Assembly (NCBI GenBank): GCA_963764165.1
Contig: CAVXRD010000001.1
Span: 1,408,001-1,472,000 of the forward strand
Origin: an uncultured Verrucomicrobiae bacterium
GTDB lineage: Bacteria > Verrucomicrobiota > Verrucomicrobiia > Limisphaerales > Palsa-1400
Direction: 5' to 3'
DNA: 64,000 nucleotides
A program made the translations under genes and the position numbers. This document shows, one piece after another, positions 548 to 8,001 of this stretch. Positions within the stretch are counted from its first letter, which is position 1. The number at the start of each line of letters is the position of its first letter. Below the pieces are notes generated by a model. That model was not told the DNA's origin. It saw only the letters and a program-made list of their open reading frames with translations, and searched no databases.

Positions 548-718
548 ATGAAATCTTGCTTAAACACATCAGCCGCAAGCTGGCCGACAATGCGAGTCGC
601 AACCGCGACACGGCATAGCCGTCCATGCCGCGGCTATGTTTCTAGCCTTGGACTATCCCTGGCCTCCATTGGAAAACAAATTGAAGGCAATTGGAATAGA
701 CTGGCGGTAAGCAGGTAA
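548..718 (+). CDS. Putative attenuator leader peptide (56 aa)
   Basis: ATG 548 to TAA 716-718 (MKSCLNTS...GNWNRLAVSR); last codons are complementary to the terminator 5' arm. Confidence 0.55.
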   Translation: MKSCLNTSAASWPTMRVATATRHSRPCRGYVSSLGLSLASIGKQIEGNWNRLAVSR

Positions 719-740
719 ACTCTCGATCTGGACTTTATCC

Positions 741-777
741 AACCCTGCTTACGAATCGTAGGCAGGGTTTTTTGTTT
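741..777 (+). terminator. Intrinsic terminator of attenuator
   Basis: 13-bp stem AACCCTGCTTACG/CGTAGGCAGGGTT, loop AAT, then TTTTGTTT; rival helix GTAAGCAGG (707-715) with CCTGCTTAC (744-752). Confidence 0.8.
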
Positions 778-3508: not shown

Positions 3509-4329
3509 GGCCTGTTAACACTAATTGACATTTTATAGGCGACAAGGCAAAATGGCTGGGTGGAGCTTACAGAGAGTCAATATCAGCGGGTTGCTGATTG
3601 TCTGCCGCGGCAGCGCGGCAACGTGAGCATGACCAATCTGCAACTTCTCAACGCCCTGCTCTATGTGGTGGAGCATGGGTGCAAATGGCGCGGCCTGCCA
3701 AAACATTTTGGCAACTGGCATACGATCTACACCCGCATGAACCGCTGGAGCAAAGCGGGCCTGCTGGATCGAGTCTTCGCCCGGCTCCAGCAGGAGCAAA
3801 TCCTGGCGATCCGGATCGAGCAAGTCTGCTTGGACAGCACGACGATCAAGGCTCACCCCGACGGCACCGGGGCGCTAAAAAAAACGGCCCACAGGCCATC
3901 GGGCGCTCCCGAGGCGGTTGCACCACCAAAATTCATCTGGTTGCCGCGAATGCCCAGTGCGCCTTAATGCTCAAGCTTTCCCCCGGCCAGGCGGGGGACG
4001 CGCCGCAAGGACGCGAGCTTTTGCAGGCGGGCGGGCCGGTTCCGGCAGGGCTTCCACTCATCATGGACAGCGCCTATGAAGGGGACGAGACTCTGCAACA
4101 GGCGCGGGAATTGGGCTACGCTCCAGTGGTTCCTCCTAACCCCCGACGCTTAAATCCGTGGGAGTATGACCAAACCCTTTACCGACGCCGCAATGAGATT
4201 GAACGGCTTTTTCGCCGACTCAAAAGCTACCGCCGAGTCTTCAGTCGCTTCGACAAATTGGATGCGTTGTACTCCGGATTCGTCGTCCTCGCGCTCATCG
4301 TGGAGGCGTTACGTTAGTGTTAACAGGCC
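3509..4329 (+). mobile_element. IS5-family (IS427 group) insertion sequence
   Basis: Perfect 16-bp IRs GGCCTGTTAACACTAA/TTAGTGTTAACAGGCC flanked by CTAG on both sides (3505-3508, 4330-4333). Confidence 0.93.
3560..4317 (+). CDS. IS5-family transposase, orfA/orfB joined by -1 frameshift
   Basis: orfA (GCKWRGLP, DSTTIKAH) and orfB (GRSRGGCTTKIH, DSAY, YRRRNEIERLF) join at an A8 run (3877-3884); TTGACA-17-CAAAAT promoter at 3525-3553. Confidence 0.9.
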
Positions 4330-7293: not shown

Positions 7294-7376
7294 GTTTTCA
7301 ATTCATTAACGTCATTGCGGAAACATCTCAACAAAGAACAAACACGTCGCTAAGATTCCTGACGGCACAAGATTTT

Positions 7377-7562
7377 ATGAATGATAAACTGAATGAGCCG
7401 ATTGAGCTCGCGCTCAAGCCCGGCGCGAGCTCAAGCTCCAAGCGCCAGCGCTGGAATCCTAAAGATCACAAGAAGTGGATCAAAAAGGTGTATGGAAGCA
7501 AGGTCTATCCAAGCAGTGAGAAAGAATTGGCAGCGGCCCGGGCCGAGAGAAAGCTGATGTAA
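7377..7562 (+). CDS. Putative antitoxin
   Basis: 61 aa ORF ending 4 bp before the PIN toxin gene. Confidence 0.6.
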   Translation: MNDKLNEPIELALKPGASSSSKRQRWNPKDHKKWIKKVYGSKVYPSSEKELAAARAERKLM

Positions 7563-7566
7563 AGGC

Positions 7567-8001
7567 ATGATCTACGCGGATACAAGCTGCCTGCTGCCGA
7601 TTCTCCGCCCCGAACCGTTAAGCGAAAGCGTTTGGGAGGCCATTCAGGAGGAATCCGTGGTCGTAATTTCCTCGCTGGCGCAATTGGAGACAATTGTGCA
7701 ACTGAAAGCGCTTTGGACGGGCGGCAGCCTGACTCGCAACCAATGGCGGCGCGTGGAAGCCCAATTCAGCCTTTTGAGAAATCAGGAGCCCTTCGAGTTT
7801 GGCGCGCTTGGCCACTCGGTTTTCCAAATCGCACTGCGCCAGCACCAGAATTCGGGCGCACTGGATTGTCGTTCGATGGATCGCTTGCATCTTGCCGCCA
7901 TGGAAGAATTGAAAATTTCGCGCCTGATGACACACGATGAAAATCAAGCGAAAGCTGCCATTGAAGCGGGTTTCAAAGTCATCCGCCCGGGTCGCGATTG
8001 A
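7567..8001 (+). CDS. vapC: PIN-domain VapC-type toxin
   Basis: IYADTS, RSMDRLHLAA, LMTHDENQ acidic PIN motifs. Confidence 0.85.
   Translation: MIYADTSCLLPILRPEPLSESVWEAIQEESVVVISSLAQLETIVQLKALWTGGSLTRNQWRRVEAQFSLLRNQEPFEFGALGHSVFQIALRQHQNSGALDCRSMDRLHLAAMEELKISRLMTHDENQAKAAIEAGFKVIRPGRD

Follow-up and report, generated by a model that had tools for sequence, protein, structure and literature searches.

The window, by which we mean the whole stretch of 64,000 nucleotides that was analysed, carries near its beginning a small leader reading frame (ORF 1, 548-718; this and all other features lie on the forward strand unless a minus sign is given). It was identified from the list of open reading frames and the alignment of relatives, and comprises 56 codons with the stop TAA at 716-718. 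It is followed by an intrinsic terminator at 741-777, made up of a 13-bp stem (741-769), a 3-nt loop and a T tract, which was found by hairpin search, consensus folding and pattern search. The initial annotation had placed a 56-aa leader, a perfect 9-bp complement (707-715/744-752) and a 13-bp terminator with a U-tract here, and its coordinates are right; the peptide also confirms its remark that the leader contains no run of a single amino acid.

A likely promoter was read from the sequence at 506-535, with a -35-like TTGCAT (506-511), a TG (527-528) and a -10-like TAGTTT (530-535). Its position is common to the aligned relatives, and distant members have TTGAC upstream of the ATG; a consensus promoter scan made no call for this site or elsewhere. 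Transcription from this candidate promoter would leave a 5' UTR of less than 10 nt and thus a nearly leaderless translation start; no Shine-Dalgarno sequence is evident for ORF 1. In many relatives conserved motifs are found further upstream, at 452-505 of the window; they may be a binding site for a protein, which would bring in another level of control.

Downstream of the terminator lies a second small ORF (ORF 2, 851-1045, 63-64 codons) with a conserved frame, which is open in 32/35 loci and in which 13 of the 16 indels are multiples of three. ORF 2 runs into a second conserved RNA module (975-1112, column identity 82%), consisting of a stem (997-1003/1051-1057), inner hairpins, the motif GTTCTTT at 1058 and a hairpin (1073-1102), which has a T tail and lies shortly upstream of the first tRNA. 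This module is found downstream of 105 of the 118 pooled leaders; in the window copy it has suffered a 5-nt deletion. The GTTCTTT motif resembles motifs in the rRNA spacer of this genome and is presumably boxA-like. A ribosome-driven switch at this second module was considered and found no support in folding, the upstream pairing of the 5' arm of its hairpin being 0.50 without ribosome, 0.52 with a ribosome at the stop and 0.46 with one in mid-ORF. The 570-nt conserved block as a whole was also regarded as a candidate for a large ornate non-coding RNA, which we would liken to ROOL or GOLLD; this candidate was discarded, as the block resolves into a pair of ORFs and a pair of hairpin modules, and the interior of ORF 1 shows little consensus structure. 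An exact 22-nt copy of the boxA-like stretch 1052-1073 is present at 7324-7345 (-), with an SMI1/KNR4 gene about 30 nt downstream of it, and an IS4/5-type transposase (3560-4317) lies between the two copies; the distant copy is perhaps the trace of a rearrangement.

At 1153-1225 a tRNA-Trp(CCA)-like gene with an encoded CCA end was recognised by its fold with a CCA anticodon loop and by its conservation in relatives. ARAGORN did not call it and reported 0 tRNAs in the window, so that no tandem same-strand tRNA array is present at this locus; judged from its sequence, the tRNA-Trp-like gene is the one recognisable remnant of such an array. It is followed at 1264-1422 by a small basic ORF of the array type, whose codon 13 is a stop in this copy; the homologous stretch is conserved in relatives and lacks that stop in a second copy. 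The first long gene under the leader (1576-2706) encodes an RNA ligase of the RtcB2 type, with 483 bits for PRK09588 (cut-off 407) and 414 bits for TIGR03073 (cut-off 272). The gene after rtcB2 has no family match, and prfH (TIGR03072) gave no match over the cut-off in the genome. Members of abundant dispersed palindromic repeat families flank the locus at 235-446 and 1431-1543, the latter preceding rtcB2. Five kb downstream of rtcB2, at 7377-8001, a small ORF is followed by a PIN-domain gene, a pair that likely represents a toxin-antitoxin system.

Antiterminator, terminator and reading frame of the leader

Complementarity, alignment and folding all point to the last three sense codons of ORF 1 (707-715) as the antiterminator. 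Their sequence GTAAGCAGG is 100% complementary over 9 nt to CCTGCTTAC (744-752) in the 5' arm of the terminator; the TAA stands immediately 3' of the 9-mer, and the terminator starts about 24 nt after the end of ORF 1. A complementary 9-mer arises in the shuffled 61 nt upstream with a chance of P 0.0017. In the relatives the pairing is kept in 97.5% of 315 alignment cells, a value that none of 500 shuffles matched and that compares with 31-51% in slid controls. The covariation of the antiterminator is real but thin: 3 sequences carry a change in both partners of one pair, and 4 of the 9 pairs are invariant.

The initial annotation had suggested folding the RNA of 690-780 with 700-725 free and masked, and this gave a divided result. 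In the full transcript masking makes no difference to the terminator, which forms in either case. If the transcript ends short of the 3' arm, the RNA folds into the antiterminator helix (-14.6 kcal/mol), and this is lost (-2.7) when 700-725 is masked. Taken alone, the terminator (-20.6 kcal/mol) wins over the antiterminator helix (-12.4 kcal/mol) at equilibrium, and therefore the switch can only be a kinetic, co-transcriptional one. When a ribosome, taken to cover -15 to +12 relative to the A-site codon, was included in the folding of 34 sequences, the mean predicted probability of the antiterminator helix was 0.86 without ribosome and 0.77-0.95 with the ribosome at codons 1-49; it fell to 0.08 at codon 53 and to 0 at the stop. 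In silico, the antiterminator thus excludes the terminator depending on ribosome position, as in attenuators, and this model hinges on kinetics and on the assumed footprint.

Other ways of controlling the terminator were considered as well. The segment 555-562 is able to pair with the antiterminator and was weakly suggested as an anti-antiterminator by the minimum free energy and consensus folds, being 87.9% paired. Its covariation does not exceed that of shuffles (91/500 reach it), nor does it dominate the ensemble of nascent folds, and a trp-style anti-antiterminator was thus not supported. A T-box or metabolite riboswitch was likewise dismissed, since no aptamer or T-box model of Rfam matched in the window at the gathering score; within 220-1600 only chance-level matches were obtained.

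The reading frame of ORF 1 was assessed in 35 distinct full-length Verrucomicrobiota loci, after removal of 5 truncated loci and 1 duplicate. The ATG is invariant (35/35), and the frame is open in 34 loci, giving 53-59 aa, and broken in one; the other forward frames are open in 0/35, while column resampling leaves the ORF 1 frame open 0.69 of the time. The stop stands directly after the antiterminator in 29/35 loci; in 2 loci it is shifted downstream by one codon and in 3 by 8 nt. TAA, TGA and TAG are all in use among the relatives. A search pattern composed of antiterminator, stop and terminator had 70 matches in the order, and all 70 carry a stop at a position where the pattern also permits TGG. 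Indels are multiples of three in 5/8 cases within ORF 1, compared with 1/27 and 8/32 in spacers. Because the frame is conserved and yet dN/dS is only mildly low (0.57 vs 0.94 and 0.69 off frame), the act of translating ORF 1 seems, from these comparisons, to matter more than its peptide. The claim of the initial annotation that a ribosome finishing the leader masks the antiterminator and a stalled one allows read-through fits the conserved start, frame, stop and pairing as well as the modelled folding.

Promoter-like site, ORF and terminator would also make up a complete unit, and the leader RNA folds better than shuffles (z -3.9), as might be expected if 548-777 were a stand-alone gene for a small protein or small RNA, with its own terminator and an incidental complementarity. 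We regard this as highly improbable: the antiterminator/terminator pair and the position of the stop are kept even where the peptides have diverged to less than 40% identity, there is no match in NCBIfam (for either small ORF) or in Rfam and little consensus structure inside the ORF, and the chance of such a complement is as low as stated above. Two features expected of a ribosome-mediated attenuator, a conserved leader ORF and an intrinsic terminator before genes, are present.

Distribution of the leader and the genes downstream

With the reversed pattern as control (0 matches), the search pattern was found in 56/301 genomes of the order, 32/401 of the class and in 5 viral contigs. It reached further than BLAST, which across the phylum returned, besides this genome, only two matches of 22-28 nt (3/401). 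Among related genomes 480-1600 was matched in 32/61 (this genome included), in some only at the repeat near 1430-1460. From the metagenome and viral pattern loci, 49/189 matched the leader profile and the rest were set aside as chance. When 72 terminator-like sites across the genome were scanned under strict settings, the architecture was recovered at this locus only; the two known paralogues were overlooked, so that the scan is too strict for counting copies.

The conserved block (452-1114) is usually placed immediately before a tRNA array, with rtcB2 further downstream, and the close relatives of the RtcB2 protein are almost all from Verrucomicrobiota. Among 83 loci with at least 1200 nt of downstream sequence, 62 have tRNAs, 22 have rtcB and 68 have either; at least three tRNAs are found in 52/83. 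The tRNA array and RtcB as the regulated unit in relatives were missed by the initial annotation, and so was the erosion of the window copy described below. Other loci lead to RlaP and RtcB, to Ro60, to a tRNA-editing domain or to ABC transporters. Two loci, L321 and L273 (the latter on a viral contig), have a short leader directly before genes for an RlaP nucleotidyltransferase and RtcB; that of L321 has 43 codons and all 20 amino acids, and 8 tRNAs lie downstream of L273. Two viral contigs, identical in sequence at the locus, carry a leader of 58 codons before tRNA genes. This leader (L218/L276 and L226/L277) is unrelated in sequence, contains all 20 amino acids and has the same antiterminator and terminator.

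In this genome, a second copy on contig C2 heads a tandem array of 11 called tRNAs on the same strand and a TROVE (Ro60) fragment. The usual GTTCRA motif of the T-loop is lacking in 8/9 called array tRNAs at C2:1559019-1561230 (-) and present in 45/46 other tRNAs of the genome. A third, diverged copy (L310, C1:1113994-1114149, minus strand) has 51 codons with 18 amino acids, lacking Asp and Ile, and stands directly before an MFS transporter gene (Pfam); the 378-aa ORF after that gene encodes what we take to be a relative of DNA polymerase IV.

Amino-acid content of the leaders

For the analysis of leader composition start codons were picked by rule, and 18/136 sites were excluded, 6 because they were truncated and 12 because no in-frame ATG lay 44-68 codons upstream. 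All 20 amino acids are present in 88/118 pooled leaders vs 7-8% of shuffles, and 110/118 hold at least 19. The initial annotation had taken the absence of runs to suggest that the leader senses general translation stress or antibiotics rather than amino acids, which in the light of these counts is likely wrong. Complete leaders make up 28/34 of the genome copies and 37/44 of the metagenome or viral copies; the corresponding null values are 8% for shuffles and 3% for windows of the same length from long ORFs.

Relatedness was allowed for only through clustering, through the resampling of columns and through the number of label changes on the tree; since the sequences are related, Fisher and binomial P values overstate the significance. 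After clustering below 50% identity about 11/25 representatives are complete (binomial 1e-6), and below 40% identity about 6/17 (binomial 1.5e-3). Column resampling yields 39% complete leaders, compared with 63/76 observed. Rare residues shift position rather than disappear: His, when lost from its usual column, reappears elsewhere in 10/10 leaders vs 17/66 otherwise, and Tyr has 13 different placements, which take 21 changes to explain on the tree, the 4 rows without Tyr being isolated tips. The same compensation test gave no significant result for Cys, Lys, Ile and Phe.

The bias extends to individual codons. An internal Met is needed to sample elongator tRNA-Met, and one is present in 113/118 leaders vs 60% in shuffles; an AUA codon is found in 102/118 vs 57% expected. 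On average 36.4 of 45 decoding groups are covered, compared with 33.4 and 32.7 in synonymous nulls. The complete set fits within the first n-6 codons in 84/88 leaders and within n-7 in only 13/88. The difference is due to Asp, whose single codon is usually found at n-6, at the margin of the codons predicted to be sensed (P 0.31 at codon 50 of the window copy).

As an out-of-sample set, 15 of 17 leaders that belong to the class but lie outside the order were scored. Three unrelated leaders of 39-43 codons are complete (P 0.007-0.009 each), 8/15 hold 19 amino acids, and 4/15, located before ABC transporters, hold 16-17, which is the level of shuffles. The loci L338, L340, L341 and L342 form one family with the same switch before ABC transporter genes and provide a natural control for completeness. 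Where at least three tRNAs lie downstream, 46/52 leaders are complete, compared with 6/21 where there are none, the lengths of the downstream sequences being unequal. From these sequence comparisons we conclude that the leader family keeps at least one codon per amino acid far above chance, which likely points to the sensing of all aminoacyl-tRNAs.

An attenuator tuned to antibiotics or to a general slowing of ribosomes, similar to PA5471.1 of Pseudomonas aeruginosa, would have the identical geometry of antiterminator, stop and folding, and the full amino-acid set would then be a by-product of a long leader conserved as RNA. In keeping with this, the switch is retained without the full set before MFS (18 amino acids) and ABC transporters (16-17), many rare codons lie in columns conserved at the DNA level, and the RtcB-like armZ is induced by such attenuation according to PMC12057347. 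Nevertheless, completeness exceeds column-preserving resampling with residues that change position, it recurs in the unrelated 39-43-codon leaders and in the leader of the phage contigs and tracks the tRNA genes, and it is absent from the longer ORF 2 (complete in 0/30). Tuning to antibiotics or general slowing is for these reasons an unlikely explanation of the family, and we favour the sensing of aminoacyl-tRNAs.

The window leader itself holds 18/20 amino acids, lacking Asp and Phe, and is the sole one of the 34 genome leaders that misses two. It covers 33/45 decoding groups, near the null, while the C2 copy covers 41. These blind spots, together with the absence of called tRNAs, the early stop in the small ORF, the genome-wide repeat at 1431-1543, the deletion in the second module and the intact second copy heading the tRNA array on C2, would suit a family of real attenuators of which the window copy is a decaying relic devoid of useful regulation. 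The parts of the switch are all intact, however, from the ATG, the frame and the stop to the perfect 9-bp antiterminator and the 13-bp terminator, and rtcB2 is of full length and above both cut-offs, which makes a mere relic improbable. The window copy is thus eroded, with its switch retained; because the Asp and Phe codons and the tRNA array have been lost, it would now act as a less complete sensor that mainly gates rtcB2.

Relation to known attenuators and proposed function

The attenuators of amino-acid biosynthesis operons (trp, his, leu, thr) contain runs of one or two amino acids and precede biosynthetic genes. The present leaders share with them the mutually exclusive antiterminator and terminator set by the position of the ribosome on the leader ORF, and are the opposite in having one or few codons per amino acid. 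An attenuator of the trp/his/leu type was rejected for this locus: there is no run, 18-20 different residues are present, and tRNAs, RtcB, Ro60 and transporters are found downstream.

With about 13 codons, PA5471.1 is too short for 20 amino acids, and the genes linked to it are prfH and mexXY; here an RtcB2-family gene stands under the leader in an operon with tRNAs, and prfH is not found beside it. Leader-peptide attenuation by PA5471.1 is proposed to turn on the RtcB-like gene armZ when ribosomes are impaired (PMC12057347), which is the point of likeness, and PA5470 is listed in a table as PrfH (PMC13159725).

The mycobacterial whiB7/wblC system is similar in that its uORF is long and variable in sequence, and that efficient translation leads to a Rho-independent terminator and stalling to an antiterminator. 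In whiB7 the composition of the uORF decides which starvations are sensed: removal of Trp or His lowers or abolishes induction by the respective starvation, and the uORF of M. smegmatis contains 19/20 amino acids. The whiB7 uORFs are enriched in alanine, lack several amino acids in some species and control an autoactivating transcription factor (PMC10274678). In the leaders described here, by contrast, it is completeness itself that seems to be kept up, and the genes under the leader are tRNA arrays and RtcB, in Verrucomicrobiota as well as on phage contigs. By analogy, the leader would work like a whiB7 uORF attenuator; it is not a member of that family, the downstream gene being RtcB2 with close relatives in Verrucomicrobiota.

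The toiL uORF of E. coli topAI (PMC12121999) resembles the leader in that one uORF senses many kinds of ribosome stall, and differs by acting on translation initiation and Rho-dependent termination instead of an intrinsic terminator. The L-arrays, such as the trn operon of Anabaena PCC 7120, offer a parallel on the output side, with extra tRNA genes that are induced under translational stress and co-regulated with rtcB (PMC8421152). The trn operon is reported to be under the control of the repressor TrcR (PMC10272220), while here a leader attenuator is predicted. The strings 'attenuat' and 'leader' are absent from the main text of PMC8421152, the datasets of which may list these arrays, and the main text of PMC8632094 contains neither 'Verrucomicrob' nor 'rtcB'. 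A search of the open-access literature by title and beginning of the abstract found no paper on this leader family.

Taken together, sequence and modelling make it probable that the locus is a ribosome-controlled transcription attenuator, and that most leaders of its relatives, by covering all 20 amino acids, sense any failure in aminoacyl-tRNA supply. A ribosome reaching about codon 52 would cover 707-715, the terminator would fold and transcription would end. With the ribosome held at codons 1-49, or absent, 707-715 would stay free and capture the 5' arm of the terminator before the 3' arm is made, allowing read-through. As the relatives usually keep all 20 amino acids, a stall on any codon would likely turn the downstream genes on. 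Spare tRNAs and RNA repair may in this manner be switched on whenever any tRNA is scarce, cleaved or mis-charged, or when a drug acts on the ribosome, and stalls caused by antibiotics would likely also trigger the leader. The benefit would lie in the spare tRNAs and RtcB so provided.

A more far-reaching proposal, which we put forward only tentatively, is that of a purpose-built sensor of the whole tRNA pool. Selection would keep a near-complete sample of amino acids and isoacceptor codons, as seen in the internal Met, the AUA codon and the coverage of 36/45 groups (33 in synonymous shuffles), and this sample would be coupled to a terminator. Bacteria and phages could thereby detect the cleavage or loss of tRNAs, e.g. 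by anticodon nucleases, and answer with spare tRNAs of altered elbow and with repair by RtcB.

Classic attenuators watch one amino acid, and this leader family appears to invert that design by placing all twenty in one short gene. It would link the sensing of tRNA damage to tRNA replacement and repair, on phage contigs as well, and would show in concrete terms how 'cryptic' tRNA arrays and RtcB could be controlled in bacteria other than cyanobacteria. The prediction is that the lack of any single amino acid opens the terminator, with two blind spots (Asp and Phe) in the eroded window copy, and the leader could be put to use as a small reporter for stress on tRNAs or ribosomes.
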